The notes under the pieces: generated by a model
Seen by the model: only the letters and a program-made list of their open reading frames with translations
What the model was told of the DNA's origin: nothing
Database searches by the model: none
Shown: positions 959-61,146 of the stretch, piece after piece
Numbering within the stretch: the first letter of the stretch is position 1
Layout of the letters: each line of letters opens with the position of its first letter
Source of the DNA: a virus
Lineage: Duplodnaviria > Caudoviricetes
DNA: 64,000 nt
Strand: one strand, 5' to 3'
IMG/VR virus record: IMGVR_UViG_3300014204_000177
Location: 5,761-69,760 of that record
Program-made: the position numbers and the translations under genes

Positions 959-1439
959 CCTTGTGGAGATTCCAGAACTCTTTCAGTGCTTCCCCGGACC
1001 AGCTATTGATCAGTTTGCTAGCCAACCACCCGATCAGTACCATCAGGATAGCATCCTTGAACCCGAATGATTTCTTCTCTGCCATGTCATTTTCCTCCTG
1101 CTTTTTATTAATTATTTTTTGTTCTTCTCTAGCTTTGTCTACTCCGTTTTTCCAGTTTTTACTGGTTTCTTCATACTCTTGCTGGTTGTACGGTTTCATG
1201 CCCACCTGTGATTGTGATTGGGCCATCATTAATTGTTGTGCGTATCGTTGATAGTCTTTATACGGCATGTTCATTTGTGCTTTGGCAAGTTCAGCCAACC
1301 GTTGTTCTTCCATAGATATATTTAATGAGGGGTAAATATCTGTCTTATATTCTTGCACTCTTTTCTTCTCACTTTCAATGTAGTCGAGAACATTACCAGA
1401 ATTAAATCTATCATCACCGAAGTATTTTGGTACTCCCAT
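927..1439 (-). CDS. hypothetical protein
   Basis: 170-aa ORF with upstream GGAGCAGGA RBS, downstream of a consensus promoter. Confidence 0.55.
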   Translation of the reverse strand: MGVPKYFGDDRFNSGNVLDYIESEKKRVQEYKTDIYPSLNISMEEQRLAELAKAQMNMPYKDYQRYAQQLMMAQSQSQVGMKPYNQQEYEETSKNWKNGVDKAREEQKIINKKQEENDMAEKKSFGFKDAILMVLIGWLASKLINSWSGEALKEFWNLHKDEVRHFFKGN

Positions 1440-2071: not shown

Positions 2072-2575
2072 TTAAATTTTAATTAATTTTTGTAAGTGAA
2101 TCGGTTTATACTGTTGTAGTTCTGGGGCATATAGGATATGTTTACCATCGTTGAATACGGTATATGTGCCACCGAACTCCGGGACACCATCATACCCTAA
2201 GTTGTGTAAGTGACCGTGTACATTTCTTTTGTGGACTCCACCGCATATAAATGTTGGTTCATGCGTTAACAATGTATCCCCTAATGTGATAGCGTCAAAC
2301 ACACCATCGAACCCGCATAACAGATATTTGGTGTCAGTCCAGTGATCGTGATTACCACGGACTAGGTACTTTTTGCCCGGAATCTGTTTTAGTATATCCT
2401 TTAGCTGTTGTTCTGTGCCAAAGTGTACATCACCTAAATGATAGGTAACATCTTCCGGTTTTAGCATGTTGGACCAGTTGCCAATTAAAAGTTCAAGATA
2501 ATTAGCCGGACGTTTGCAATATTCCATTATTGCATTATGGTAGAAGTGAGTATCCGAGATAATAAATCGTTTCAT
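2072..2575 (-). CDS. calcineurin-like metallophosphoesterase
   Basis: Motifs SDTHF, HLGDV, GNHD, H-E-P, HGHLH. Confidence 0.9.
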   Translation of the reverse strand: MKRFIISDTHFYHNAIMEYCKRPANYLELLIGNWSNMLKPEDVTYHLGDVHFGTEQQLKDILKQIPGKKYLVRGNHDHWTDTKYLLCGFDGVFDAITLGDTLLTHEPTFICGGVHKRNVHGHLHNLGYDGVPEFGGTYTVFNDGKHILYAPELQQYKPIHLQKLIKI

Positions 2576-2586
2576 TCTTCCCTCCT

Positions 2587-3123
2587 TTATTTTTGTAATC
2601 CCTTGGGAACGTCATCCTTTTCGATTGTCTGTTTAAAACACATATTGGCGGCAGTATGGAAGATAACAATACCTTCAGGATTCATAAATTCCGGTGATGC
2701 TACACTTCCTTGACTTTTTAACACCATAAGACAACCATTAATTTTCGCCGTATCGAATTCGCCTTGGTACAGTACGGGAACAACATGACAGCATTTCGGT
2801 CTTACATCTGGGTCGGCCCATCGTGCTACGTTGAATAGTGAAAAGCGTTTTTCCTTCAGGCCATAGTTACGTTGAATACCCATACCCCACCATTCTCCGT
2901 AATGACTTCCCGGCCCCAGTTTACGCAGTTCTTCTTCGTGTTCATACGCCCATCGTGCAAAACCATGATTGTCATTTTTTGGTGTAATCCAACAGGTACG
3001 GCTACCTACAAGGAACTGGTTATCGTCGGTAATACAGATTACAGAGCAGGTCCCGTCGATTTTTTCAGTGACGATAATTTCCCGGTGTAGTCTTGCAATT
3101 TTTGGGAACTCTCTAAATTCCAT
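2587..3123 (-). CDS. RNA ligase, Rnl2-like nucleotidyltransferase domain
   Basis: Motif I EKIDGT, III YGEWWGMGIQ, IIIa FSLFN, IV EGIVI, V FKQT. Confidence 0.85.
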   Translation of the reverse strand: MEFREFPKIARLHREIIVTEKIDGTCSVICITDDNQFLVGSRTCWITPKNDNHGFARWAYEHEEELRKLGPGSHYGEWWGMGIQRNYGLKEKRFSLFNVARWADPDVRPKCCHVVPVLYQGEFDTAKINGCLMVLKSQGSVASPEFMNPEGIVIFHTAANMCFKQTIEKDDVPKGLQK

Positions 3124-3142: not shown

Positions 3143-3214
3143 TGGATGTGGCTATGGGAATCGGACCCATCTCAACAGTTTTGCAGACTGTTACACTCCC
3201 AGAATGAAGCCACA
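3143..3214 (-). tRNA. tRNA-Cys(GCA), atypical
   Basis: TGTGGCT/AGCCACA acceptor stem, U73, encoded CCA, anticodon loop CT-GCA-AA; T-loop reads TCCGATT and the D-loop is shrunken. Confidence 0.8.
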
Positions 3215-3265: not shown

Positions 3266-3337
3266 TGGTTGCGGGGATGGGGGTCGAACCCACTGTTTCA
3301 GGCTTATGAGGCCCAAACCATTACCGAATGCCCCGCG
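3266..3337 (-). tRNA. tRNA-Met(CAT), initiator-type
   Basis: C1:A72 mismatch, loop CT-CAT-AA, T arm TGGG-TTCGACC-CCCA, CCA end; D arm weak. Confidence 0.8.
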
Positions 3338-3687: not shown

Positions 3688-3764
3688 TGGAGCCACCGGA
3701 GGGGAGTCGAACCCCTCTTCCAACTGTTTACAAGACAGAGACACATCCGTTGTGCTTCGGTGGC
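3688..3764 (-). tRNA. tRNA-Thr(TGT)
   Basis: GCCACCG/CGGTGGC acceptor stem, loop CT-TGT-AA, T arm AGGGG-TTCGACT-CCCCT, CCA end. Confidence 0.85.
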
Positions 3765-3767
3765 ATT

Positions 3768-3847
3768 TGGTGGAGCCGCCCGGAATCGAACCGGGGTCCA
3801 ATCAGTTGCGCTTTGGCTTTACTGACTGTCTAAACCTTATCGGCCCC
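3768..3847 (-). ncRNA. 80-nt tmRNA-like RNA consisting only of the tRNA-like domain
   Basis: GGGGCCG/CGGCTCC-ACCA acceptor with G3:U70 and A73; stemless D-analog ATAAGGTTTAGAC; 7-bp P2a-like helix AGTCAGT/ACTGATT closed by 14 nt; GGAC then T arm CCCGG-TTCGATT-CCGGG. Confidence 0.75.
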
Positions 3848-4067
3848 ATTTTTCATAAATATCTTCAAATAATCTTTCTGTGGATGCGTTCGTTGCTTTA
3901 TCAGCATTCTCAACATTTTCCAGTTTGCTACTGGCATAGTAACTTATCCAGACTTGATCTTCAATATCGAGTTTTGATTCAAAGGGTTTGGCATATATAC
4001 GCCCAATAGCAAACGGGTTTGTGGTTTTCAAAACGTATATTTCTCCAAGTTTTACCATTTCATTCAC
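3837..4067 (-). CDS. hypothetical protein
   Basis: 76-aa ORF downstream of a consensus promoter; last codons overlap the 5' end of the tmRNA-like RNA. Confidence 0.55.
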   Translation of the reverse strand: MNEMVKLGEIYVLKTTNPFAIGRIYAKPFESKLDIEDQVWISYYASSKLENVENADKATNASTERLFEDIYEKWGR

Positions 4068-4082
4068 CGTCCTTATGCTTAT

Positions 4083-4111
4083 ATTATATCATAGTTTCGT
4101 TTGTTTGTCAA
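4083..4111 (-). promoter_or_regulatory. sigmaA-type promoter for the tRNA/RNA-ligase unit
   Basis: TTGACA-17 bp-TATAAT on minus strand. Confidence 0.8.
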
Positions 4112-5895: not shown

Positions 5896-5924
5896 ATTAT
5901 ATCACATTTTTAACTATTTGTCAA
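5896..5924 (-). promoter_or_regulatory. sigmaA-type promoter
   Basis: TTGACA-17 bp-TATAAT. Confidence 0.8.
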
Positions 5925-6318: not shown

Positions 6319-6393
6319 AATTTTCCCCTTTCAGCCTATCTCTTCAGTGTCAGGCGGCTAGTCCTGACAGACAGGGATTGCTCCCTGTTTCGA

Positions 6394-6696
6394 TTAGCTT
6401 AAATCCTCACTTTCAAAGAATTGTTCTACTTCTCTTTCAATATCTGCTATAGTTTCCTCAAATGCTTCACTGGTAAATGGATAATCTAGGAAATACGGTC
6501 CTACTTCTGCTTCCGAACCTTCCACGATTGAACCCAGTTTGATACCTGTGGCTGTTGTGTCAATCCATGCACCACAATCGGTTGATTCGTATATTTCCCT
6601 TTCAATAGTCCCAAAAGGTATGTCAGGTTCCAATTCCAGATATTGTGCTAATTCAGCTTGATTATTGATTTTCACTGTTTTATCCTCCTGCTTCAT
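6394..6696 (-). CDS. hypothetical acidic protein
   Basis: 100-aa ORF in the early gene run. Confidence 0.6.
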   Translation of the reverse strand: MKQEDKTVKINNQAELAQYLELEPDIPFGTIEREIYESTDCGAWIDTTATGIKLGSIVEGSEAEVGPYFLDYPFTSEAFEETIADIEREVEQFFESEDLS

Positions 6697-30802: not shown

Positions 30803-33800
30803 TTGGCTAAAGGTGCAAAAGACCCGAACGAAGTAGTAAACTTTATGCAGTCACTCGACGATTATGTAAGTAATTGGCAACCTGCACCCATAAAGCCTGA
30901 AGTCAGTAATCCCGCCGAATTCGGGAAGGCTGCTGGACGCTCTGCTACCAACCTAGTCGGAGGTCTTGGATGGGGAGCGCAAACCGTTGGTGACATGACC
31001 GGACTGGATAGCTTATCTGAACTGGGAAAAACTCTCAAACAATTTGAGGATACTACCAACCAGAAATACTTCCAGCCCGGATATAATGGCCCTGTATTAG
31101 ATGTACAAAACCCTGACTATTGGTTCAAAGGTGGAGCCGCATCTGATACTGGTAATCTTATTGGTTCAATGGTAGGATTCTTCATTCCCCAAGTGGGAGC
31201 CGCCAAAGCATTACAGGCAGTTGCCGGAGTAGGTAAACTAGCCGGAGCCGCCAATTCCGCTATTGGTGCTGGTAAAATGGTTGAAGGTATAGCCTTGGCA
31301 GATAAAGCCCGGAAACTACAACAGGGTGCTGAACTGGTTGCTGGTTTCGGTGCTGGTATGTTAGAGTCTGCTGGTGAAGCCAGAAGTCAAGAATCACAAC
31401 TACTGCAAGATCGGGCCGCTGGCAAAATACAAGTATCTGACGAACAGATTCAAGATTCTGCCAAAAGCGTCTTTGGATGGAACTTACCAATAACTGGCGT
31501 GGGTGGCGCTTTGACTAGCGTACTCGCAAAACCGGGAGGTAAGCTACTGAGCAAGGAAGCTCGTACCGCATTACAGGGCGTTCAAAATCAATCCTTAGTT
31601 CAAAGTGCCAGTAAGATTGTTGATCAGGTACGTCAAAAGACTGCCGTTCAACTCTTCGGTACTGGATTCAGCGAAGGACTACAGGAATTTGAACAGCAAG
31701 CTATACAGGAAAATCAGATGCCCGGAGCCGTTTCTGACGGTATTATGGGTACACCCTATTCATTAAATCCCACAGAAGATCGTGTCAAGTCTGCTGTCTT
31801 GGGTGCTATCGGTGGTATCGGTGCTGGTGTTACATTCCGCGCCTTGGGGAGTCGTTATGCCAAAGGGCCGGAAGAACAAGCAATTCTTGATCAGGTTGAG
31901 AAGGGAATTAAACAAACCGAAGAACAATCGACTAAAGATTTACAGCAACGTACTAAGGAAGAAATTGATAGACTGCGTATCTTTAAGGAGATGGACCAAG
32001 AAGGGTTTACTCCGCAAGAACAATTATCCCCGGAAGAAAAGATCGGATTCTATGATACCGCCAAAGATTCGGGACACATGGATGAAGACCTGATCAAAAC
32101 TATTGACGGTCTGGATGGAGATGCCAAAATCAAGGCAATCGACTCTATCCTTGCCGACCCTAATATTATTGACAATACCGATATCGTGGAACGTATGATT
32201 CAGAAACGGGCTGAACGGGATGCCGTGGCACCGGAGCCGGAAGTACCGGAACAGGTTATTCCTCAACCGGATATCACACCTCCTGATCATCAGCTTCCTC
32301 CCCCTAGTCAGATCGTTCCGCAGGTAATGCCTCCGGTAAATATCCCGATCAATCCCAAGACAGGTCCGGTAACACCACAAGTGATTCCGTTACCTGCTCC
32401 ACAGGTTGTACCGCCTACGGTAGCCCCCGCGCCCGTAGCCCCGGCACCTGTAGCACCAGCCCCAGTAGTCCCACAAGTTACTCCGAAGCAACAAACTCAA
32501 ACCAAAAATGTGGGTGGGGCTAAACTCGAATACAATAACCTTGATATCTTCAATCGCCGTTGGGATAAAATACCTAATAGTGAAGTGGAAAAACAATTTA
32601 CTTATTGGTGGCAATCACCCTTAACCCCTACAGACATTAAAGACAATATCGCCAAAACGTATGTTAATGATCAAGGTAGGTTAAAATTATCATTACCAGT
32701 TGAAACAAAAAGACAATTATTAAAAGACAACAATCTCCCAGTTAATGAATTCCGTTTAGACGCATATAAATCCAAAACCTCATACACCAATGACCTGCGT
32801 CAAGCGTCAAAGATCGCCCCGGATACTGAAAAACATCCTGATGTGACTGCTGGTAAACTGGTCAATTTTGCTCGTCTTGAAGATTATGACGGGTTCGCTA
32901 AACTATTGCCAAAAGCTTCTAAACAGGCCATTGAAAAAGCCAAACCGTTGATTCGTCAATGGGATGACATAGCAACTACCGAAGGATTATTTTCTTCTAA
33001 AGAAGTTGGGATGGCAGATAAAGCCAATGGTGATATTATCGAAAAACTGGATACCGATATGCGGGAATTCGTGGAGAAGAATACCGGGAAACCAGTTACC
33101 GTAACACCCGGCATTAATGACCTATCTGTATCCAAATATAAACGGTGGGAACGTGACGGCAGAATTCAGAAAGGTCTGAATGAACTGTTCACTATTCTGG
33201 CGAAACGTCACTATGATGCTACCGGATTGACCACGATTTTTGGAGTCAATCCTGCACATCCAGAACTTGGTAAAGAAATGTTTGAAAAACGCCAATCGGG
33301 TTTTAAACCGGGAGAAGGTCGTAGAACTACTCTTGGAGTCAACACAGGGTTAAACTACGCTACCCATAAATCTTACCTGATGATGTATAAGGGTGCCAAT
33401 GCGTTTGTGGTAACACATGAGTTTGCTCACGCATACCTTCGTAGTATGGATGAAACCCAACAGCGTCACTGGATGAACTTCGTAGTTGAAGCCAAATCGA
33501 AAGGGTATGTATTCCCAGAAAGTCATTTACCTAGTCAAAAACTACCGGGACCATACAACCCAATGCCACCTTATACTTATTTCCACGAAATCTTTGCTGA
33601 TCATATGACGATGATGTTGGTAAAGACCGATAAGGAAATTGCTAAATTTTTCAAGGGAGACCCAGTATTTCAATCCCCCAACCTGTTCTATAACCTCCTG
33701 ACTGGATTACGGATGATGAAGCCAATCGTTCAGGAAGCTTATAATCATGGAGGGAAGATAGACCCTAAACTTAAAAAGTTACTGCAACCCGACACCTTGA

Positions 33801-36800
33801 AGAATCTGGAAGAACTTTACAACGATGTACGGACTGGTAATTTGAAAGTCAAGGACGAGATTGACAGAGGGCCTTTAGCATCCGAACCGACATATCTTGA
33901 AACAGACGAAGACATGGACAATAACAAGAAACTGGGTTTCTATTCTGCACTATATAACCATGTCAATGGATTAAACTTTACTTCAATCCCTGCCAAAGAT
34001 TTATTGCAAAACCTATATAATGATAAAACCAATACCTCTAAAGTGTCTGGTGTTAAACTGGAAGAAATGGAAGATATTGGTCTTATCACTTGGTTGCAAA
34101 GTCAGACTGGCAAAGTAAGCAGAAATGATATTTTGGACTTTATTCGCAAGGGTGGAATACAGCTAGAAGAGATTAATAAAGGTAAGCTAAAATGGAAGGT
34201 CAAAGATCATCAACTACAATATATATATGATAATGAACAGGACGCTCGAAAACATTATAATAAAATAATTGATCGCGATTTAGCTAAATCATTAGTTAAA
34301 GTGATGGACCACGGAGATCAAATCATTTATGAGGATAAGACGGATTCAGAAGAAGACCCTATCCTTCTTACTTATAATAAGATCACCGAAGGGCCTGACG
34401 CTGGTAAATTTGTATCAGCAGACGCTATCAAAAACAATAATCCAAATTCTAGAAAATGGGATAAAGATATCTTACTGTCAAAACTTATCCGTATGCAGAA
34501 AGAAACTGTAATTGACGAGTACCAAGTCAGAATAATGCAAACAGATAGGACCTCTAAATATAGCCAATATAATATCCCCGGTGGCACTAATTACCGAGAA
34601 ATCCTATTAAGGTTGCCAAATAATAATGGATATTATAAAGGGCTACATTGGGAAGAGAAAAATGTATTAGTACACATCAGAACTACTGATCGTATCGTTA
34701 ATGGTAAAAAGACTATATTTATCGAAGAAATTCAATCTGACTGGCACCAAAAGGGACGTACCGAAGGTTATGTTGGTTATCCGAGTGAAGATACCCAAAA
34801 AGAATTAACAAGACTTCGAGAACAACTAAAAGGCCTAAACGAAGATACTGAAAAAATCATCGGTAAATATGGAGGAAAAGAAAACGTATACAAAGCATTA
34901 AGGGATATTAAAATCAGAGAATATGACCCCGAAAACTGGGATAGAATAAACTCCGATATCCAAAAGTATAACCATTTAAGCACTATCAGGGAAAATGTTA
35001 GAGAAGATATTAAATGGTATATGGATAGGGGCGTAGACAACGCCCCCATGAAAAAAACCTCTACTTGGGCTATGCTGGCAATGAAACGAGTATTTAATCT
35101 TGCCGCTAAAGAAGGTTATCAACAGGTAATGTGGACAGATGCCTTAGTCCAGATAGACCGTTGGACCAATAACACTAGAGGTGTGGTTGATCGCATCCAA
35201 TGGACTAAAGCAGTTGATCGCCCCGGTACCTATTTAATCCAAGGGTCAAAAGATACAGAAGAAGTTATCTCTAAAACCGTTGATTCTGACCAAGAACTAG
35301 AAGAACTACTTGGTAAAGAAATGGCAAATAGTATTATCAACGATACTAAAAATAAAGGTGTTTTAGAGGGCGATAGTATTGTTGTTGGTGGTAAAGGATT
35401 TGAAGGATTCTATGATAAAATTCTTACTACCGAAGTTCAGAAGTACCTCAAAAAATTCGACCCAACCGTTAAGGTAGAAAAAACTGCCATTACCGAAGAA
35501 GGAGAAAAGTTTGGGGCATGGTCTGTTGACTTCACTGATGCCATTAAACAGGGGATACAAAATGGTCAACCCCTTTATATGGAAGGTAACATCAAACCAG
35601 ACAATAGCCGACAGAATCTACTGGATGTAAAGCAAATTAACTTTACTCCTAACTCCATGCACTTTGAACGTAACCGACTGAATGCCCAACATCTGCGTGA
35701 TGCTGGATGGACGGAGACGGCACAACCGGACGGAACTATTCAGTTCTCCCGGACCAACCCGAATCCATTGCAGAACCGTGAACGTATTGTTCCGGGTATT
35801 GCCCAGACAACGCAACAACAGATATCCCCCAAAACTATGCTTGGCAAAATCAAACAGGCCACCTTCAAAATCTTTAGTGAAAACTACAAGAACTGGGTGG
35901 ATGATCAGTTTGGGTTTAAGGAGGCTGGCATACTCAATCCTACCATTAAGGAGGATATGCGTAAGCTTGGCATTCATGCCGCTGTAGCCACCAGAGGGTG
36001 GACAGGACATGCCCAGAAACTTATCCGCTACGGTGCCAAAGGTGTGGACTTGCGGGATGGTCAAGGCAAGATTGATATTAAACCTATCACCCAAATCTTC
36101 GCTAATTTGAACGAAGATGAACAAAAGAGTCTCGATCAATATCTGATCGCCAAACGTGTCATTGACTTAGCCAACCGGAAACATTCCATTGAGCAGGGAC
36201 TCACGATACAGGAGTCAAACGATATTATCAACAATACATCCCAGAAGGTTAAGGATGCCGCCAGTGATATCGTAAACCTGAACCGTTACCTGTTGAATGT
36301 ACTGGTGGACGGTGGACTGGTCAGCGAAGAGGGCTACCAGTTTATGATCAAGCAAGACCCCAACTATGTACCATTGATGAAAGACTTCTCCGAAGAAGAT
36401 GCCGAAAACATCGTATCCGGTATCAATTCCAAATCGTTCGTCAATATCGGTAATCCAATCCATAAGATCGGTTCTAGTGAGAAGTCAATCATATCCCCGT
36501 TGGAATCAACGCTGAAGCATGTATACCAGTTCTATAGCAAGGCTGAGTTCAACCAAGTTGGTCAGCACTTTGCCGGACTAGGAAACCAACCTCATATGGC
36601 TGGTTTGATTAATCGCGTGGGCGCTCCTTCATCTAAGAAAGAGAATATCTTTAAAGTCTGGGTGTTGGGTAAACCGCAGTATTATGAGACTACCCATAGT
36701 TTGGCACAAGCTGTAGGTAACATGAACGTACCACAATCCAATATCTTATTCAGTCTACTGGAAAAGCCAGCGACTTGGTTGCGGATTGGCGCTACGGCTA

Positions 36801-38230
36801 CCCCTACGTTCGCTTTCCGTAACTTCTTCAAGGACCAGTTTACTGCGTTCGTATTCTCACATCATGGGTATATCCCGTTTTATGACGCAATCCGGGCGTT
36901 CACCGACATATCCAAACAGAATGGCATCTATCAGGAATATCTGGATAGTGGCGCGGCCCATGCCGATATCATGGGTATTGACCGCAACTACCTACAGAAA
37001 GACCTTCATGCCATTTATAGCAAGGAATCATTCAAACGGATGGTTTCTCACCCGCAGGAGATTGTCACCAACCTGTTCCATATCATGCAGAACTTTTCAG
37101 AAAAGGTGGAAGTTTCCACTCGACTAGCTGAGTACAAAAATGCAAAAGCTGGTTATACTGGAATGGTTTCTCGTATGACTAAAACCAATATCCAACCAAT
37201 GACTGGTTACGAACTGGCAAATGAAGCCAGAGATATCACCTTGGACTTCTCCCGCGCCGGAGTGTACGGCAGAAAGATCAACCGTTATATCTCATTCTTC
37301 AATGCTAATATCCAAGGTTCGGACAAACTGGTACGCGAATTCATAGCCCACCCCGGCGACACCAGCATGAAAATGGCAATGATATCCTTATTGTCTGGTA
37401 TGCTTTATTTCGCCAATGAGGGTGATGATCGCTACAAGGAACTACCACAATGGGAAAAAGACTTGTTCTGGATTATACCCGGAGAGAAAAGTATGGCTCG
37501 ACTTCCGAAACCTTTCGAAGCTGGCTTGTTATTCGGTACTACAGTTGAGAGATATCTTGATTGGATGCGTACCGGAAACCCGGAAGCTTTCAAAGGATTG
37601 CAGAAGAATCTCGGTCAGGCATTCACTCCCGGCTTTATCCTGACAGCCCTACAGCCGATTATGGAAGTTGCTATGAACTACGATATGTTCCGTGACCGGA
37701 CGATCATTCCGCAGTCTGAGCAAGGCAAAGACCCGCAGTTACAATTCGGCCCGTACACCAGTGAATTCTCCAAAGTTATCGGTAAGTATATGGGAGTATC
37801 TCCCAGAAGTATCGATCACGTTATTGAAGGTTATACTGGTACACTGGGTAAAGAAGCATTGGGACTTACTAATAAAATGGTGGAAGGTGGTAATAAACTG
37901 CCGCAACGTACACCTATGGAATGGTTGCCAGTGGCATCTGCGGTCAACGTAACGCCTTACCAGAGTCCCGAATCTATCCAACGTCTGTTCGATAAGAACG
38001 AAGAATACGGCAGAATCAAGTCCCTTCTCGATAAGAAGCTGATCAAACCTAGTGAATACCCGGAAGCTAAACACGATGCGGTTAAAGCCGCCATTCGTGA
38101 AATCCGCGATATTCAAAAGGAAGCAAAAGATGTGCTTGATTCCAAAACCTTGACTTCAGAACAGAAACGTGTACGCATGGATAGAGTTAAGATCAGAGAA
38201 ATGAACATAGCAAAACGGGCATTGAAATAG
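30803..38230 (+). CDS. giant (2475 aa) internal virion / polyvalent protein with zincin motif and LPD38-like C-terminus
   Basis: THEFAH...HEIFAD; YSQYNIPGG-NYREILL...EEIQSDWHQKGR; C-terminal DFSRAG...FFNANIQG...LPKPFEAG. Confidence 0.8.
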   Translation: MAKGAKDPNEVVNFMQSLDDYVSNWQPAPIKPEVSNPAEFGKAAGRSATNLVGGLGWGAQTVGDMTGLDSLSELGKTLKQFEDTTNQKYFQPGYNGPVLDVQNPDYWFKGGAASDTGNLIGSMVGFFIPQVGAAKALQAVAGVGKLAGAANSAIGAGKMVEGIALADKARKLQQGAELVAGFGAGMLESAGEARSQESQLLQDRAAGKIQVSDEQIQDSAKSVFGWNLPITGVGGALTSVLAKPGGKLLSKEARTALQGVQNQSLVQSASKIVDQVRQKTAVQLFGTGFSEGLQEFEQQAIQENQMPGAVSDGIMGTPYSLNPTEDRVKSAVLGAIGGIGAGVTFRALGSRYAKGPEEQAILDQVEKGIKQTEEQSTKDLQQRTKEEIDRLRIFKEMDQEGFTPQEQLSPEEKIGFYDTAKDSGHMDEDLIKTIDGLDGDAKIKAIDSILADPNIIDNTDIVERMIQKRAERDAVAPEPEVPEQVIPQPDITPPDHQLPPPSQIVPQVMPPVNIPINPKTGPVTPQVIPLPAPQVVPPTVAPAPVAPAPVAPAPVVPQVTPKQQTQTKNVGGAKLEYNNLDIFNRRWDKIPNSEVEKQFTYWWQSPLTPTDIKDNIAKTYVNDQGRLKLSLPVETKRQLLKDNNLPVNEFRLDAYKSKTSYTNDLRQASKIAPDTEKHPDVTAGKLVNFARLEDYDGFAKLLPKASKQAIEKAKPLIRQWDDIATTEGLFSSKEVGMADKANGDIIEKLDTDMREFVEKNTGKPVTVTPGINDLSVSKYKRWERDGRIQKGLNELFTILAKRHYDATGLTTIFGVNPAHPELGKEMFEKRQSGFKPGEGRRTTLGVNTGLNYATHKSYLMMYKGANAFVVTHEFAHAYLRSMDETQQRHWMNFVVEAKSKGYVFPESHLPSQKLPGPYNPMPPYTYFHEIFADHMTMMLVKTDKEIAKFFKGDPVFQSPNLFYNLLTGLRMMKPIVQEAYNHGGKIDPKLKKLLQPDTLKNLEELYNDVRTGNLKVKDEIDRGPLASEPTYLETDEDMDNNKKLGFYSALYNHVNGLNFTSIPAKDLLQNLYNDKTNTSKVSGVKLEEMEDIGLITWLQSQTGKVSRNDILDFIRKGGIQLEEINKGKLKWKVKDHQLQYIYDNEQDARKHYNKIIDRDLAKSLVKVMDHGDQIIYEDKTDSEEDPILLTYNKITEGPDAGKFVSADAIKNNNPNSRKWDKDILLSKLIRMQKETVIDEYQVRIMQTDRTSKYSQYNIPGGTNYREILLRLPNNNGYYKGLHWEEKNVLVHIRTTDRIVNGKKTIFIEEIQSDWHQKGRTEGYVGYPSEDTQKELTRLREQLKGLNEDTEKIIGKYGGKENVYKALRDIKIREYDPENWDRINSDIQKYNHLSTIRENVREDIKWYMDRGVDNAPMKKTSTWAMLAMKRVFNLAAKEGYQQVMWTDALVQIDRWTNNTRGVVDRIQWTKAVDRPGTYLIQGSKDTEEVISKTVDSDQELEELLGKEMANSIINDTKNKGVLEGDSIVVGGKGFEGFYDKILTTEVQKYLKKFDPTVKVEKTAITEEGEKFGAWSVDFTDAIKQGIQNGQPLYMEGNIKPDNSRQNLLDVKQINFTPNSMHFERNRLNAQHLRDAGWTETAQPDGTIQFSRTNPNPLQNRERIVPGIAQTTQQQISPKTMLGKIKQATFKIFSENYKNWVDDQFGFKEAGILNPTIKEDMRKLGIHAAVATRGWTGHAQKLIRYGAKGVDLRDGQGKIDIKPITQIFANLNEDEQKSLDQYLIAKRVIDLANRKHSIEQGLTIQESNDIINNTSQKVKDAASDIVNLNRYLLNVLVDGGLVSEEGYQFMIKQDPNYVPLMKDFSEEDAENIVSGINSKSFVNIGNPIHKIGSSEKSIISPLESTLKHVYQFYSKAEFNQVGQHFAGLGNQPHMAGLINRVGAPSSKKENIFKVWVLGKPQYYETTHSLAQAVGNMNVPQSNILFSLLEKPATWLRIGATATPTFAFRNFFKDQFTAFVFSHHGYIPFYDAIRAFTDISKQNGIYQEYLDSGAAHADIMGIDRNYLQKDLHAIYSKESFKRMVSHPQEIVTNLFHIMQNFSEKVEVSTRLAEYKNAKAGYTGMVSRMTKTNIQPMTGYELANEARDITLDFSRAGVYGRKINRYISFFNANIQGSDKLVREFIAHPGDTSMKMAMISLLSGMLYFANEGDDRYKELPQWEKDLFWIIPGEKSMARLPKPFEAGLLFGTTVERYLDWMRTGNPEAFKGLQKNLGQAFTPGFILTALQPIMEVAMNYDMFRDRTIIPQSEQGKDPQLQFGPYTSEFSKVIGKYMGVSPRSIDHVIEGYTGTLGKEALGLTNKMVEGGNKLPQRTPMEWLPVASAVNVTPYQSPESIQRLFDKNEEYGRIKSLLDKKLIKPSEYPEAKHDAVKAAIREIRDIQKEAKDVLDSKTLTSEQKRVRMDRVKIREMNIAKRALK

Positions 38231-49216: not shown

Positions 49217-49331
49217 TATCTTAGACTTCATATCCTCATACACATTTTTCCACTGTGAGTCTGGGAATACTTTTGCCAATAATTCGATTGACTTGTAGAA
49301 GACGATACTACGATGATTTGAGAACCAGTTT

Positions 49332-50837
49332 TTAAACTCGTCCATGTTCAATGGCGTGTCTTGCATTGATTAGTTCACCTCTTAATACATTGGTTAAATC
49401 TCCCATGACTGCAAACCATTCCTGATGACTGACATTGTAGCCATTAGACAGGGACATTTCAAATTGGATATGGTATGCTTGCGTGAAGTGCATCAGCAAC
49501 GGCAGGATACATTGTTTAGAAAAAACCATTTCCCGCAGTTCCGGCATGTTCTTTTCTATCCCCTCCGAACACAGTTGCATAATTTCGTTAGCTTCCTGTA
49601 TCGCAGAGTCGATCTTACCGAGTAGATGTTCCGTCGAACTGGGTGTAAAACTGGCTAGGGTATCCGTAATAGTTTGCCGGATAGACGAAGCAGGAGCCTC
49701 ACAGAGCGACGAAAATTCTTTTAGGGTACCTATGGTAGCCCCCTGTATCTTTGCCCCACCTTCTGTGCAGTTGTAGCACTTCCCTTGGTACATTTTAAGA
49801 TCATGTTCGTATGCTTTCAGGCAGTCATACCAGATTTGGTGTGTTTCCACTTCCGGTTCGACGTTACCGGGAACTTTAATGCGTGACATGTTGAGGTGAT
49901 TCTGGGACTCACCTTCAAACAATGGCGCATCGTCAGCATGTGTCTTGTCTCCAACGAATGCCAAATCTTGTCCGACGAGAGCAATCGGATTGCAACCCAA
50001 TTCTTCCGCGATTTTAAAGGCCATATTACCAGATGACTGTTCCACTTGTAGAATCCCACGTTCAATGTCAAGCCATTTGAAGTGGTCGAAGTTGCGATAG
50101 ACAATAACTCTGGGGCCGGGATATCCCATATAAACTTCTTTTGGTACAACCGGACAGGCGGCGAGATAGATTCCATCAAGTTCATCATCCTTCCAACGGT
50201 TCAGCATTGCCACGGTTTCAGGAATACGTTCCAAGGATGCAACCAAATGGGGCCGGATACCGAATTCCAGTAGTGGTTTCAATGAAGCATCTGCCGCAAT
50301 GATAACAGCCTTATCCTGTAATTCCTTTAACAATGGAAGCTGTTTAGTCAACGAAGGTCCAGTGGCAACCACGATAGCTGGCTTATCCTTGAAGGTATCC
50401 TTCAACATATTGATACCCGGATTATTAATGATCTCGTTGATGTTGTGGAACATGTTGGAAATACCAATCAAAGAATCCTCCGGGTCATTACCATATCTCA
50501 ATATAGCTAAACGCAGAGCCACAATTAACATCCCGGTCATTGCCTTGGCATAGTTTGATTTCACATTGGGACCAAATACTTCGGCAGTCGGAAACCATAC
50601 AAAGCGATTCTGCTCCACAAGGAAGCTGTATAGAACACTATAAGCATCCTCCACTGGGAGATCAAGGAAAATCTTAATAGGTAGATGTGACTTGACAATC
50701 GCATCAATATGACTGACATATTTCTTGCGGTCAGTCTCGAATACGATAGCAAACTTGGTATCATTCTTTCTCCATTTTTTATTGATATAATTGAACAAAT
50801 CGGCATCAATACCGAAGAAGATTGCAATATTTACCAC
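49332..50837 (-). CDS. Maf/DUF115 (motility-associated factor-like) glycosyltransferase
   Basis: PAIVVATGPSL, IIAADAS, SSGNMA...LGCNPI-LVGQDLA, NCTEGGA. Confidence 0.85.
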   Translation of the reverse strand: MVNIAIFFGIDADLFNYINKKWRKNDTKFAIVFETDRKKYVSHIDAIVKSHLPIKIFLDLPVEDAYSVLYSFLVEQNRFVWFPTAEVFGPNVKSNYAKAMTGMLIVALRLAILRYGNDPEDSLIGISNMFHNINEIINNPGINMLKDTFKDKPAIVVATGPSLTKQLPLLKELQDKAVIIAADASLKPLLEFGIRPHLVASLERIPETVAMLNRWKDDELDGIYLAACPVVPKEVYMGYPGPRVIVYRNFDHFKWLDIERGILQVEQSSGNMAFKIAEELGCNPIALVGQDLAFVGDKTHADDAPLFEGESQNHLNMSRIKVPGNVEPEVETHQIWYDCLKAYEHDLKMYQGKCYNCTEGGAKIQGATIGTLKEFSSLCEAPASSIRQTITDTLASFTPSSTEHLLGKIDSAIQEANEIMQLCSEGIEKNMPELREMVFSKQCILPLLMHFTQAYHIQFEMSLSNGYNVSHQEWFAVMGDLTNVLRGELINARHAIEHGRV

Positions 50838-57949: not shown

Positions 57950-58749
57950 TATTCCTCCTCATTATCCGACAATAGGACAACATCACAGGGGTTTCCACGG
58001 AAACCACACTTTTTACAAAGTCCATTGTTATCCGAGGCAGGAAGGAAAACCCCTGCTGTAATTCCTTTTTCAACTTCGTTATACACATTGAGGTAATAAG
58101 CGATTGTCCGGTCATCCATTGGCATTTGATCTACGATAAACCCCTTATGGGACCATTTCTTTTTGCCGGATGGCATCTTCTTCCCGGTCCACTGTTGTTT
58201 CACCATAATTACTTTAGGAAGTTTACGGTATTCCTCCATATAAGCCATAGCATAGGTTGCCATATTAAGCATATATTCACCAGTAACAGCAGAACCCCAG
58301 AGGCCACGACCAAATTTGTAATCATATACTCCATCCTCTGTTTCCAAGTCAGCTACACACATGATATCCATGCCACTGGCCCGTTTAATATTATAGTGTT
58401 TTTCAGTAGATACTGGTTGCAAATCTTTGAACAATTCAAAGAAGTCTTTACAGGCAAGTATACCTTGTTCTCGAAGGTGGTCAGGGTCATCTTCACCCCA
58501 TACATTGATGATCGGTGCTGTTCCTGCGAAGTTATCGGTAAACCGGGATATTAACGTATCAACGCTGACGGTTTTACCTGCCATTTTATCCTTCCAAAAA
58601 TCATCAACCGATTTGTGCATTGCCGAACCATAAACAGTTGCGGCATATTTAGTGGGATTGGTCAGGCCCATTACCTTTTCGTAAAGAACCTGACGACCAC
58701 ATTTACGGTAACTTTGACAGGTTGAAGGGGAAAGATGCAACACTGGCAT
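57949..58749 (-). CDS. PD-(D/E)XK (RecB/Cas4-like) exonuclease
   Basis: LSPS...C, YGSAMH, VADL...DYK, Q/M--Y, C--C...C. Confidence 0.85.
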   Translation of the reverse strand: MPVLHLSPSTCQSYRKCGRQVLYEKVMGLTNPTKYAATVYGSAMHKSVDDFWKDKMAGKTVSVDTLISRFTDNFAGTAPIINVWGEDDPDHLREQGILACKDFFELFKDLQPVSTEKHYNIKRASGMDIMCVADLETEDGVYDYKFGRGLWGSAVTGEYMLNMATYAMAYMEEYRKLPKVIMVKQQWTGKKMPSGKKKWSHKGFIVDQMPMDDRTIAYYLNVYNEVEKGITAGVFLPASDNNGLCKKCGFRGNPCDVVLLSDNEEE

Positions 58750-60212
58750 TATAGTTCCACCTTCTCAATGTCTTGCAACTGGGTATTGCCACCACTCATT
58801 ATCTGGACGATTGCTTTCACCAGATTGTCATTGAATCCGTGGACGTAAATCACATTCGGATTCTTCGAAATTTTGGTGTGGGTAGCAGTCAACTGCCAGA
58901 TGATCAGGGTTTTACTGCGGTCCCATCTGCTTTCAAGATTGTCACACTGTTCGTTATCGGTGATAATAAGGGTATGTTTCTGACCAGCATATTGACGGGC
59001 AATCGTCTCGAAACGAGTACCGCCGTGGCATTGTGACGATTCGATACTCTTGGCGAATTGCATCAGTTCGTCGGTGTCCCGGCGTACAAGGTGACATTCA
59101 CCAGATACCGAATAGACTTTATTGGAATCATCGGACATTGCGATCATAGCGCCGAACACGGAAGCGATTTGGGCGGCGGTCAGTGACGGGGTTACGTCAT
59201 TACCATCCATCGAACCGGATACGTCCACATTGACCATAACATCCTTTACTCCTTCGAACCGACTACCTTGACGCAGGATAGATTCCAAGGCCCGTTGGAT
59301 GGGGCGATTGGTGATCATATCTCTGGCAGAGATAATCTTGAACGGGAGCATACGGGATTTCTTATACAGTTCGTAGTTGGCTACCCGCATTGCCACTTGG
59401 TTTTCAATCGAACCGATATTCAGCCCGAAGGTACGTTCGATAGTGGCAAGGTTTTGGACCAGAGCCATATAGGATAGTTTCGGAATGATCGCATTGAATA
59501 CGTTCATCCGGTCCACTTCGCTAATGGTACCGAACTGATGTTTCAGTTCTTCCAACTGAAGTCCATGACGTTCAATCGTGTACAGAACTGCGGCATCCAC
59601 TTTACCGTTTCTCAACGATTCGAGTACACCGTTCAGAGCAGAAGCACGTTCAAAGGTAGGGGTTCCGGTGGCAATATAGGTGAACCGATCAGATACATCC
59701 GGTCCAGCAGGATTCGGGTGAGCAACCTTCAGCACTTCGTACAACTTGCCGCGATACCGACAGGCATTATACTCATTGACATTGGTGTTCAACCAGCTAT
59801 TGATCGCCTGTTTTACAGTACGGCCCAGACCTTGGCGAATCCCGGCCTTACGGCACAGGTTCACAAAGTCATTCAGGTCTTTCGGATTCTTCACAACCTT
59901 GTCGAACACTTTGGCGAACAACGGTTTGTTATAGATGGACAGGTATACCAGAGCCAATACAGGTTGCAGTTTCATACCGCATTCATTCCGGGCATAGACT
60001 GCGGCCTTTGCGAGAAAAGCGGGGTCTGTTTGCGCGGCACAACGGTAGATATCTTTGGAGTCACGGATAATATCCGCTTCCGTAGTATACAGGGTATTAC
60101 CGATCAGTCCGGTACACAGCATATTGACCACCTTTTCTTTAGTGGACAAAGCGTAACCAGTACCTCCTTGATAAGTGGTGATCGGTTGTTCATACAATTT
60201 TTTAACAGTCAT
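58749..60212 (-). CDS. rsr: Ro60/Rsr-family TROVE-domain RNA-binding protein
   Basis: GGTGY, AAVYAR-E-GMK, GLGR--K-AI--W, HPNP, MALVQNL, MLPF, vWA MIDAS DVSGSM, GGT, IITDNE. Confidence 0.92.
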   Translation of the reverse strand: MTVKKLYEQPITTYQGGTGYALSTKEKVVNMLCTGLIGNTLYTTEADIIRDSKDIYRCAAQTDPAFLAKAAVYARNECGMKLQPVLALVYLSIYNKPLFAKVFDKVVKNPKDLNDFVNLCRKAGIRQGLGRTVKQAINSWLNTNVNEYNACRYRGKLYEVLKVAHPNPAGPDVSDRFTYIATGTPTFERASALNGVLESLRNGKVDAAVLYTIERHGLQLEELKHQFGTISEVDRMNVFNAIIPKLSYMALVQNLATIERTFGLNIGSIENQVAMRVANYELYKKSRMLPFKIISARDMITNRPIQRALESILRQGSRFEGVKDVMVNVDVSGSMDGNDVTPSLTAAQIASVFGAMIAMSDDSNKVYSVSGECHLVRRDTDELMQFAKSIESSQCHGGTRFETIARQYAGQKHTLIITDNEQCDNLESRWDRSKTLIIWQLTATHTKISKNPNVIYVHGFNDNLVKAIVQIMSGGNTQLQDIEKVEL

Positions 60213-60236
60213 TTTACAGCACTCCTTATTATTTAG

Positions 60237-60301
60237 TGGGGAAATATTATCAAGTTACTTTTTCGAATTAACCATACGATGTAAACTTGATTAGCACCCC
60301 A
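60237..60301 (-). ncRNA. Y-RNA-like unit 1 (65 nt, stem only)
   Basis: TGGGG/CCCCA and ATCAAGTT/AACTTGAT helices; short insert. Confidence 0.7.
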
Positions 60302-60317
60302 AAGAGAGAAGGATTTC

Positions 60318-60444
60318 TGAGGGAATAACCGGAAGATACTTATGCGCCGTTCTCCCAGACTGAACTACCACCGCATTACTGCGGGGAGCAGGATTCGAAC
60401 CTGCGACCTGCGCCTTGCCAGATGTAATCTTCACAAGCACCTCA
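60318..60444 (-). ncRNA. Y-RNA-like unit 2, YrlA-type permuted tRNA mimic
   Basis: AGGTC-GCAGG-TTCGAAT-CCTGC T arm, closed acceptor hairpin CCGCA-GTAA-TGCGG, then D arm TAGTTCAGTCTGGGAGAAC; GCGC/GCGC anticodon-stem remnant. Confidence 0.85.
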
Positions 60445-60454
60445 AAACTTTATG

Positions 60455-60592
60455 CGGGGGAATAGCAGGAAGAGACGGTTCGCGGCGTAATACTACCGCG
60501 ATAAGTGTCATCTAAGTGTGAAAAAAGAGATTCTGAAGCCTCCTGAGTAAATTCAAATGTATTAATTTGATGTACTCTTCCACAGCACCCCG
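60455..60592 (-). ncRNA. Y-RNA-like unit 3 (non-tRNA cargo)
   Basis: CGGGG/CCCCG and GAAGAG/CTCTTC helices; internal hairpins TCAAAT/ATTTGA and CGCGG/CCGCG; no T-loop. Confidence 0.7.
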
Positions 60593-60602
60593 AACATTTT
60601 CT

Positions 60603-60675
60603 TGGAGGGAACGGCAGGAGTTGAACCCGCTGGAAACCGTTTTGGAGACGGTACCGCGACCACTCGCTCGAACCC
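60603..60675 (-). tRNA. tRNA-Trp(CCA), degenerate
   Basis: ACCGT-CTCCAAA-ACGGT anticodon arm, GCGGG-TTCAACT-CCTGC T arm, CCA end; two U-U mismatches in the acceptor stem. Confidence 0.7.
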
Positions 60676-60683
60676 AAATTTAA

Positions 60684-60814
60684 ACGGAAGAAATATCGAC
60701 AAGTTTATTTTAGCGTCCTACCATTAGACGACCCCGCCATGTGGTGGCGGTGGCTGGAATCGAACCAGCATGACTCGTTCATAATACGATGTAAACTTGT
60801 ACAGGCACCTCCGT
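60684..60814 (-). ncRNA. Y-RNA-like unit 4, YrlA-type permuted tRNA mimic
   Basis: GCTGG-TTCGATT-CCAGC T arm, CCGCCA-CCACA-TGGCGG closed acceptor, D arm GTCGTCTAATGGTAGGAC. Confidence 0.85.
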
Positions 60815-60828
60815 ATGTGAATAATTTT

Positions 60829-60942
60829 ATAAGGGAAATAGCGAAAAGTTTAGTGTGTTTGCCATGTACACAAATCGCCCGAAGACGATTTTGGAGTCGA
60901 ACCAATATCATAGTATGATGTAAACTTTTCAAGCACCCTTAT
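60829..60942 (-). ncRNA. Y-RNA-like unit 5, YrlA-type permuted tRNA mimic
   Basis: TTGG-TTCGACT-CCAA T arm, AATCGTC-TTCG-GGCGATT acceptor hairpin, TGTGT-ACATGGCAA-ACACA D arm. Confidence 0.8.
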
Positions 60943-60952
60943 GGATTCGCTA

Positions 60953-61030
60953 GAGAAATATTGTCAAGATTATTTATAGGTTCTCACCTACTTTCAATTT
61001 CAACAGTTGATGTAATCTTGACAGGCACTC
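60953..61030 (-). ncRNA. Y-RNA-like unit 6 (short cargo)
   Basis: GTCAAGATT/AATCTTGAC helix; two small internal hairpins. Confidence 0.7.
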
Positions 61031-61044
61031 CCACGAAATGTCAA

Positions 61045-61146
61045 TAGAGGGGATAACGTAAAGTTTAGTAACTAGCACCACGCATTAAGGGAATCGAACC
61101 CACTCGTCTTTTTTGCAGAAAGATGTAAACTTCACAGGCACCTCTA
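61045..61146 (-). ncRNA. Y-RNA-like unit 7 (anticodon-like arm plus T arm)
   Basis: TAGAGG/CCTCTA; TCTTT-CTGCAAA-AAAGA hairpin followed by GGG-TTCGATT-CCC. Confidence 0.75.

Follow-up and report, generated by a model that had tools for sequence, protein, structure and literature searches.

A predicted tmRNA gene reduced to its tRNA-like domain in an uncultivated tailed phage, and its relatives in other phages

Trans-translation, a drug target, is the main pathway of ribosome rescue and quality control in bacteria. A phage tmRNA that consists of the tRNA-like domain only (TLD-only) is a kind of RNA already in the literature. The entry "Mycobacterium phage DS6A (TLD only)" appears in Hudson, Lau and Williams (2014; PMC4131195), and this RNA is recorded in the tmRNA Website as tmID 11587 under "Standard, no CDS", a label that the 2025 tmRNA database paper gives to 9 sequences overall (PMC11915505). 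Where PMC4131195 and PMC11915505 cite Mao et al. 2009, they relate that a DS6A-like molecule strongly inhibits E. coli tmRNA whether or not it can be charged, "perhaps acting by titrating SmpB" (PMC4131195). The published record is this one phage and one inhibition experiment, and in the literature we found no paper describing a wide family of phage mini-tmRNAs.

In organelles, tmRNAs without a CDS are presumed to act with SmpB and without tagging (PMC11915505). Laboratory constructs of the same domain have also been studied: PMC3895274 credits Shimizu and Ueda (2006) with the observation that a TLD-only tmRNA accepts peptide in vitro, and PMC8363625 describes a crystal structure in which truncated tmRNA is bound to the ribosome together with SmpB and EF-Tu. 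The locus described here adds a member of the DS6A kind from an unrelated phage. The original prediction for this locus knew of no phage description, and on this point the DS6A entries (PMC4131195, PMC11915505) correct it.

The RNA gene and its genomic setting

The window, by which we mean the whole 64-kb stretch of DNA that was analysed, comprises bases 5761-69760 of a 69,760-nt IMG/VR record from a landfill metagenome. The record is about 76% complete, and its terminase, portal, major capsid and tail fibre genes identify a tailed phage whose portal and terminase share no more than 31% identity with those of cultured phages. Two sequencing runs contain the sequence, both of DNA (landfill and groundwater), with no RNA run among them. 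Read as the reverse complement, window positions 3768-3847 run GGGGCCG, AUAAGGUUUAGA, CAGUCAGU, the 14-nt AAAGCCAAAGCGCA, ACUGAUUG, GAC, CCCGG-UUCGAUU-CCGGG, CGGCUCC and ACCA, and make up an 80-nt TLD-only "mini-tmRNA" gene with the following parts:

3768-3847, minus strand: predicted mini-tmRNA gene with encoded CCA (RF00023 at 67.1 bits, fold, family covariation)
3841-3847, minus strand: 5' strand of the acceptor stem, GGGGCCG, RNA positions 1-7, in which G3 pairs with U (G3:U70) (sequence)
3829-3840, minus strand: stemless D-loop analogue of 12 nt, AUAAGGUUUAGA, which contains the tmRNA GG and GA (alignment to the tmRNA consensus GAucuGGaUUCGAC)
3821-3828, minus strand: 5' strand of helix 2a, CAGUCAGU, 8 bp including the conserved C:G (fold; double changes in the family)
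3807-3820, minus strand: AAA internal loop, stub GC(C)-AAAG-(C)GC and an A, in place of helix 2b, the pseudoknots and the tag template (family loop anatomy)
3799-3806, minus strand: 3' strand of helix 2a, ACUGAUUG (fold; covariation)
3779-3798, minus strand: GAC linker and T arm CCCGG-UUCGAUU-CCGGG; the preceding G closes helix 2a, giving GGAC (model alignment; covariation)
3768-3778, minus strand: 3' strand of the acceptor stem, CGGCUCC, discriminator A and CCA (sequence)

Searched against the whole 64-kb window, the Rfam tmRNA model RF00023 matches the element at 67.1 bits (E 5.8e-24; gathering cut-off 47 bits) and is the top-scoring model of the tRNA clan for this interval, which receives no tRNA or tmRNA call from ARAGORN. 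The match spans model positions 1-374, reaching both ends of the model, with 306 internal positions replaced by 12 nt. The minimum free energy fold consists of the acceptor stem, the P2 hairpin and the T arm (-32.6 kcal/mol, z = -3.6), a stability far beyond chance. The 7-bp acceptor with G3:U70, A73 and a CCA end carries the alanine identity features, and the T arm has the 5-bp stem and 7-nt T loop of a tRNA-like domain. In tmRNAs the D-loop analogue is a single strand of 10-13 nt, whose 19-GA-20 pairs non-canonically with the GA of GGAC, and helix 2a has 8 bp with a conserved first C:G pair (PMC1168896); the element has a 12-nt single strand with GG and GA, together with GGAC and a helix 2a of that length and first pair. 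Only 14 nt separate the strands of helix 2a, with no mRNA-like domain (resume codon, tag frame and stop), and pseudoknots PK1-PK4 and helices 2b-2d and 5 are gone with the 306 deleted model positions. The features of the DS6A type are all present, namely a phage-borne RNA of 65-95 nt with a full TLD, a helix 2a closed by an internal loop and stub, and no CDS. Based on the covariance-model match, together with the family covariation and universal alanine identity elements described below, we predict that 3768-3847 (minus strand) encodes a working TLD-only tmRNA.

The original prediction had parsed the interval exactly as its reverse complement reads, and had proposed a tmRNA reduced to its tRNA-like domain. 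The alanine identity, stemless D-analogue, P2a helix and GGAC that it named are all found here, as is the absence of a tag frame, pseudoknots and anticodon arm, the last seen in a 14-nt interior set on an 8-bp helix with no 7-nt anticodon loop. An ordinary tRNA-Ala, which it had named as the competing reading, did not score better. Its account of the interior holds in part: 14 nt do replace the message domain, but they are not a plain loop, since an A-rich internal loop followed by a capped stub of 2-4 bp is found across the family.

The surrounding region of the minus strand contains the following features:

4083-4111, minus strand: predicted sigma-70 promoter with TG extension, TTGACA-17-TATAAT, preceding the RNA gene by about 235 nt (12/12 consensus match)
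3837-4058, minus strand: ORF of 73 codons between promoter and RNA gene, its UAA stop at RNA positions 9-11 (sequence)
3688-3764, minus strand: tRNA-Thr(UGU), 3 nt beyond the CCA of the mini-tmRNA (ARAGORN; RF00005 at 40.8 bits)
3269-3337, minus strand: sub-threshold tRNA-like gene between the 107-codon ORF and tRNA-Cys, with a CAU anticodon loop (CUCAUAA) and weak D arm (RF00005 at 23.5 bits; no ARAGORN call)
3143-3214, minus strand: tRNA-Cys(GCA), in the same leftward cluster (ARAGORN; Rfam)
2587-3123, minus strand: RNA ligase (Rnl-type), directly 3' of the RNA genes (PF09414 at 55.4 bits; phrog_548)
2072-2575, minus strand: calcineurin-like metallophosphoesterase (PF00149 at 31.2 bits; phrog_547)

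The order along the minus strand is promoter, 73-codon ORF, mini-tmRNA, tRNA-Thr, 107-codon ORF, tRNA(CAU)-like element, tRNA-Cys, RNA ligase and metallophosphoesterase, with tRNA-Cys and tRNA-Thr being the only ARAGORN calls. This arrangement suggests that the mini-tmRNA belongs to a predicted early sigma-70 operon shared with the two tRNAs, the RNA ligase and the phosphoesterase, the last of which is likely to be the end-healing partner of the ligase. DS6A, for its part, encodes an RtcB-like RNA ligase at 49300-50502, while the ligase beside the RNA genes in the window is of the Rnl type. A second perfect 12/12 sigma-70 promoter with TG extension lies in the same leftward early region, at 5896-5924 (minus strand) in addition to the one at 4083-4111. 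The presence of two such promoters hints that the -35/-10 recognition of the host is canonical, and hence that the host is probably not a member of the Bacteroidota.

The 73-aa product of the upstream ORF is putative and had no homologue beyond itself. Processing of the mini-tmRNA at its 5' end would strip the mRNA of this ORF of its stop codon, making it a ribosome-rescue substrate itself. We considered an upstream ORF stop inside the RNA gene as a feature of the family and rejected it: the overlap occurs in 23% of cases versus 11% at control positions, a weak enrichment attributable to tight gene packing.

No SmpB and no tyrosine integrase were found in the 69.8-kb record (about 76% complete), and no other tmRNA-like message domain came up when the window (E up to 10) and the entire record were scanned with Rfam. 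Neither the window nor the remaining 5.8 kb contains a credible non-genic short frame ending in ...[LVIFYM]AA* or ...A[LVIF]A*; the matches to such tag termini lie within genes or within a hammerhead ribozyme.

Several other features of the window deserve mention. The hammerhead is of type II, at 6330-6395 (minus strand; 38.3 bits, cut-off 37), about 2.5 kb from the mini-tmRNA, and one of the related phage contigs (L007) has a hammerhead at 974-1038 (minus strand; 44.1 bits) about 1.3 kb from its own mini-tmRNA; this shared proximity is possibly a coincidence. A TROVE-domain (Ro60-like) protein is encoded at 58749-60212 (minus strand; PF05731 at 59.4 bits) and is followed by weak YrlA (Y-RNA-like)/tRNA-like matches at 60342-60412 (32.9 bits) and 60690-60792 (24.2 bits), with an echo of the tmRNA model at 60742-60812 (18.5 bits). 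Judged by these matches, the region 58749-61146 (minus strand) looks like a phage Ro60/Y-RNA module. A giant protein of 2475 aa at 30803-38230 (plus strand) has a C-terminal LPD38 domain as its sole Pfam match, which, together with the roughly 70-kb genome and podovirus-like portal matches, suggests an N4-like virion protein.

A family of related elements in phages

To define relatives, a strict IUPAC pattern was used that describes a TLD with merely 15-45 nt between GAC and GGAC and holds GGGG and UCCACCA fixed. It matched 50 IMG/VR contigs and yielded 39 further distinct sequences of 67-90 nt. In a MAFFT alignment of the 40 distinct elements, the helices are paired in 95.4% of cells, whereas column shuffles reach 70% and sliding the partners gives 55.6% at most, and the covariation score over the three helices is 0.613 versus at most 0.124 in controls. 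Double changes occur at 6 of 7 helix 2a (P2a) pairs and 3 of 5 T-stem pairs, and the T stem is paired in 100% of cases. The sole apparent acceptor mismatches are in 9 sequences beginning GGGGUGG, and these vanish when the 5' end is moved one base upstream, where the base is G in all nine. Of 20 sampled members, 18 pass the cut-off of the Rfam 15 tmRNA model. ARAGORN calls overlap just 13 of 158 elements and are mostly spurious.

Because the first pattern had fixed GGGG and UCCACCA, a second scan left the acceptor unconstrained and imposed just GG.UU.GAC, GGAC and a T arm whose loop is UUCGAUU. This matched at least 119 IMG/VR stretches. Among the matches listed, 91 of 93 distinct elements have a perfect 7-bp acceptor stem, and within these 91 G1:C72 is found in 91, G2:C71 in 90, G3:U70 in 91 and A73 in 91, while CCA is encoded in only 31 elements. 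The AlaRS identity set therefore appears to be invariant while the remainder of the acceptor stem is free to vary, which argues that the mini-tmRNAs must be charged. Taken with the covariation, this pattern points to selection both on structure and on alanine identity in the family. A metagenome scan for the subtype UUUAGAC...AAAGCC found 23 more elements. The architecture is common to the window element, DS6A and more than 100 elements from IMG/VR or metagenomes, and the window element is an ordinary member of its family.

The part that replaces the message domain has a consistent anatomy. The modal length of helix 2a in the family is 8 bp, equal to that of the window element, and the helix is followed by an asymmetric A-rich internal loop with mostly 3-6 nt on its 5' side, often AAA, and 1-2 nt on its 3' side. 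Beyond this loop is a stub of 2-4 bp with a small cap. The Rfam consensus and E. coli tmRNA have the same order of parts: helix 2a, a "GAa" internal loop with a 1-nt bulge on the 3' side, and helix 2b. On the strength of this correspondence, the natural mini-tmRNA appears to consist of the TLD, the 2a/2b junction and the first pairs of 2b. The window loop AAAGCCAAAGCGCA recurs with one base changed in two other carriers, as AAAGCCAAAGUGCA in L267 and as the G-ending AAAGCCAAAGUGCG in L045, and the acceptor, helix 2a and T stems of both differ from those of the window element despite the nearly identical loop.

Two ideas about this loop were rejected. A tag of zero length, consisting of the alanine and an immediate stop (UAA directly after helix 2a), does not describe the family, in which only 51 of 109 distinct arms have a stop at the junction; the other junctions are GAA, AAA and others, and the conserved feature is the A-rich loop. 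Pairing of the loop AAAGCC with the D-loop GGUUU had no covariation at its middle position, as judged by eye on aligned sequences.

Among 185,579 bacterial and archaeal species, with one genome each, the strict pattern matched only 4 contigs, all from MAGs. Comparison with the 50 IMG/VR contigs under the same pattern suggests that the mini-tmRNA is essentially phage-specific and rare in integrated form, and TLD-only tmRNAs appear to be common in uncultivated phages. Searches for close relatives of the window phage found none that carries the gene: nothing was matched when the region was compared by blastn with 50,697 phage records, relatives identified through the RNA ligase (53-61% identity) are without a mini-tmRNA, and so are those identified through phrog_1017, across 791 kb.

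No protein family recurs in more than 16 of 158 carrier loci by all-against-all clustering of ORFs within 3 kb, and the neighbour proteins of the window do not recur at carrier loci, with the exception of the RNA ligase (3 of 157). The lack of a recurrent neighbour suggests that the RNA works with host factors and not with a dedicated phage protein. A tRNA gene lies within 200 nt in just 32 of 158 carrier loci, always on the same strand, and 116 of 158 are without any tRNA gene. In carriers L006, L022, L024 and L035 the motif TGTCAAC/G ends about 9-10 nt before the 5' end of the RNA, and may be a phage-specific promoter or processing signal.

Possible roles of the RNA

We consider it probable, with modest confidence, that the mini-tmRNA out-competes host tmRNA. 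The RNA would be transcribed early from the sigma-70 promoter at 4111-4083, together with tRNA-Thr, and excised by tRNA-processing enzymes. Host AlaRS would charge it with alanine via G3:U70 and A73, and host SmpB and EF-Tu-GTP would bind it. It would then take the place of host tmRNA in entering ribosomes that have stalled where a broken mRNA ends, and would receive the nascent chain. Since the mini-tmRNA contains no template, the chain would carry no ssrA degradation tag, and host trans-translation would be out-competed in a dominant-negative manner. For the RNA of the window we infer expression, charging and an effect in the host. That a charged RNA would compete at non-stop ribosomes and leave the chain untagged is suggested by an alanine identity that does not vary, an intact acceptor/T stack for EF-Tu binding, the missing template and the dependence on host SmpB.

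This competitor role is consistent with the end-to-end RF00023 match (67.1 bits) and the 18 of 20 sampled relatives passing the cut-off, with the covariation in the 40 elements (0.613 versus at most 0.124; 95.4% of cells paired), and with selection on charging as read from G1:C72, G3:U70 and A73 in 91 of 91 of the acceptor-free matches listed. It also agrees with reliance on host factors (no SmpB in the record, no recurrent neighbour family), with phage specificity (50 IMG/VR contigs versus 4 MAG contigs), with the 12/12 predicted promoter upstream and tRNA-Thr 3 nt downstream, and with the same helix 2a, AAA loop and stub in the DS6A element at JN698994 28478-28560. Blocked ribosome rescue could harm the phage too, however, because some phages need trans-translation, and the part of the genome that the record does not cover might encode a phage SmpB or a tag piece. 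The inhibition of E. coli tmRNA by a DS6A-like molecule (PMC4131195, PMC11915505), the peptidyl transfer to TLD-only tmRNA (PMC3895274) and the ribosome structure with SmpB and EF-Tu (PMC8363625) argue for competition, but the account in PMC4131195 also holds that a chargeable RNA was not needed for inhibition. Inhibition without charging, set beside a strictly conserved alanine identity, suggests a natural role beyond inhibition and favours a productive, tag-free rescue.

In such a rescue, which we regard as possible but doubtful, the charged mini-tmRNA with host SmpB and EF-Tu would enter non-stop ribosomes and accept the peptide, and the peptidyl-Ala-RNA would exit by drop-off and peptidyl-tRNA hydrolase, or by hydrolysis of the ArfB/RF type. 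Ribosomes would be recycled for phage mRNAs, so that the gain would be extra capacity when host or defence nucleases cut mRNAs, and not inhibition. The G3:U70 and A73 found in 91 of 91 among the matches listed fit a need for charging, which is reported to be dispensable for inhibition, and mitochondrial and some plastid tmRNAs without a tag frame have nonetheless been retained together with SmpB (PMC11915505). The company of the window gene, with tRNAs, an RNA ligase and a phosphoesterase, suggests translation upkeep under RNA damage, although the association with an RNA ligase is seen in just 3 of 157 carrier loci. The family conserves no stop codon that might serve as a "template", a junction stop being present in 51 of 109 distinct arms, and we know of no release mechanism for a peptidyl-TLD without a stop codon. 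Tentatively, then, phage mini-tmRNAs might be a third natural mode of ribosome rescue, template-free, and not mere inhibitors. If this is true, phages would have fast, tag-free recycling of ribosomes while mRNAs are being cut, and the invariant alanine identity (91 of 91 among the matches listed) and the 2a/2b loop would be functional requirements.

It is unlikely that the RNA is purely a sponge that titrates host SmpB off tmRNA, with aminoacylation and ribosome entry irrelevant. The SmpB-side elements, GA/GGAC and helix 2a, are present, and the inhibition described in PMC4131195 from Mao et al. 2009 occurs with chargeable and non-chargeable molecules alike; yet a sponge has no need of the alanine identity, the 7-bp acceptor and the 5-bp T stem that form the EF-Tu-binding stack, which are invariant in 91 of 91 among the matches listed. 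Three further readings (a split tmRNA, an attP remnant or pseudogene, and a tRNA or other use) are improbable even when taken jointly. Permuted two-piece tmRNAs exist (PMC11915505), and the element might be the acceptor half of a split tmRNA whose partner is a phage tag-coding piece elsewhere or the message domain of the host, but its helix 2a is closed by a hairpin and leaves no free arm for a coding piece, and the searches of the window and record described above found neither another message domain nor a credible tag frame. We think a split gene highly improbable. Our confidence is lowest of all in a non-working gene, whether an attP-type fragment of host ssrA or a tmRNA pseudogene decaying after an internal deletion. 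Integration into tmRNA genes is common, and the 3' ends of these genes are often found in phages (PMC11915505), but here the 5' and 3' halves are both present and perfectly paired, the helices covary over at least 90 distinct versions, the record has no tyrosine integrase and the element is almost absent from bacterial genomes. The location in a tRNA cluster and the alanine identity would suit an ordinary or aberrant tRNA-Ala, or an alanine-charged minihelix acting off the ribosome, such as one that donates alanine for cell-wall or lipid modification. This, too, we consider very improbable, given that the element has no D stem, no 7-nt anticodon loop and no ARAGORN tRNA call, that the tmRNA model wins the tRNA clan at 67.1 bits, that the tmRNA-specific GAC/GGAC and an 8-bp helix 2a are present, and that tRNA genes are missing altogether from 116 of 158 carrier loci.

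SmpB titration and tag-free rescue, the functional options of the original prediction, are those that the literature would support for such molecules, and it is by inference that they are extended here. A widespread, phage-specific RNA that keeps the parts for charging and for SmpB and EF-Tu and drops the tag template would imply that many phages manipulate trans-translation. To the published record the window adds a member from an unrelated phage, in a predicted early sigma-70 operon with tRNAs and RNA-repair enzymes, and the family data (invariant alanine identity, no conserved stop codon, no phage protein partner) sharpen the question of inhibitor versus tag-free rescuer.

Comparison with known tmRNAs

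Canonical SsrA (RF00023) has in common with the element helix 1 with G3:U70 and ACCA, the D-loop GG/GA, an 8-bp helix 2a beginning with C:G, GGAC and the T arm. Unlike SsrA, the element is without helices 2b-2d, all the pseudoknots, the resume codon, the tag frame and helix 5, or 306 of 374 model positions. Jakobid and oomycete mitochondrial tmRNAs (RF02544) and the CDS-less plastid tmRNAs of Mallomonadaceae, of about 65 bp (PMC11915505), are reduced to the tRNA-like part in the same way. Most of these organellar genes, however, are permuted and in two pieces, and their partner is a nuclear SmpB that has co-evolved with them, whereas the window element is an unpermuted phage gene that would need the SmpB of its host. 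Engineered TLD fragments have the same domain content as the window element and demonstrate that an RNA of this kind can bind SmpB and EF-Tu, move into the A site and receive peptide (PMC3895274, PMC8363625), but they are laboratory constructs, and the natural family additionally keeps the 2a/2b internal loop and stub.

DS6A is the nearest described system. Its element, like that of the window, is phage-encoded and about 80 nt long. The acceptor with G3:U70, the D-loop analogue without a stem, helix 2a and the T arm occur in both elements, neither has a tag frame, and both have an A-rich internal loop and a short capped stub, reading AAAACCGCACGCGGUA in DS6A and AAAGCCAAAGCGCA in the window. 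The two share no sequence identity outside the conserved tmRNA positions. DS6A is an actinophage siphovirus with an integrase, whereas the window phage is an unrelated landfill phage of about 70 kb in which no integrase was found. The DS6A element does not encode CCA and scores 43.2 bits against RF00023, below the Rfam cut-off, while the window element encodes CCA and scores 67.1 bits.
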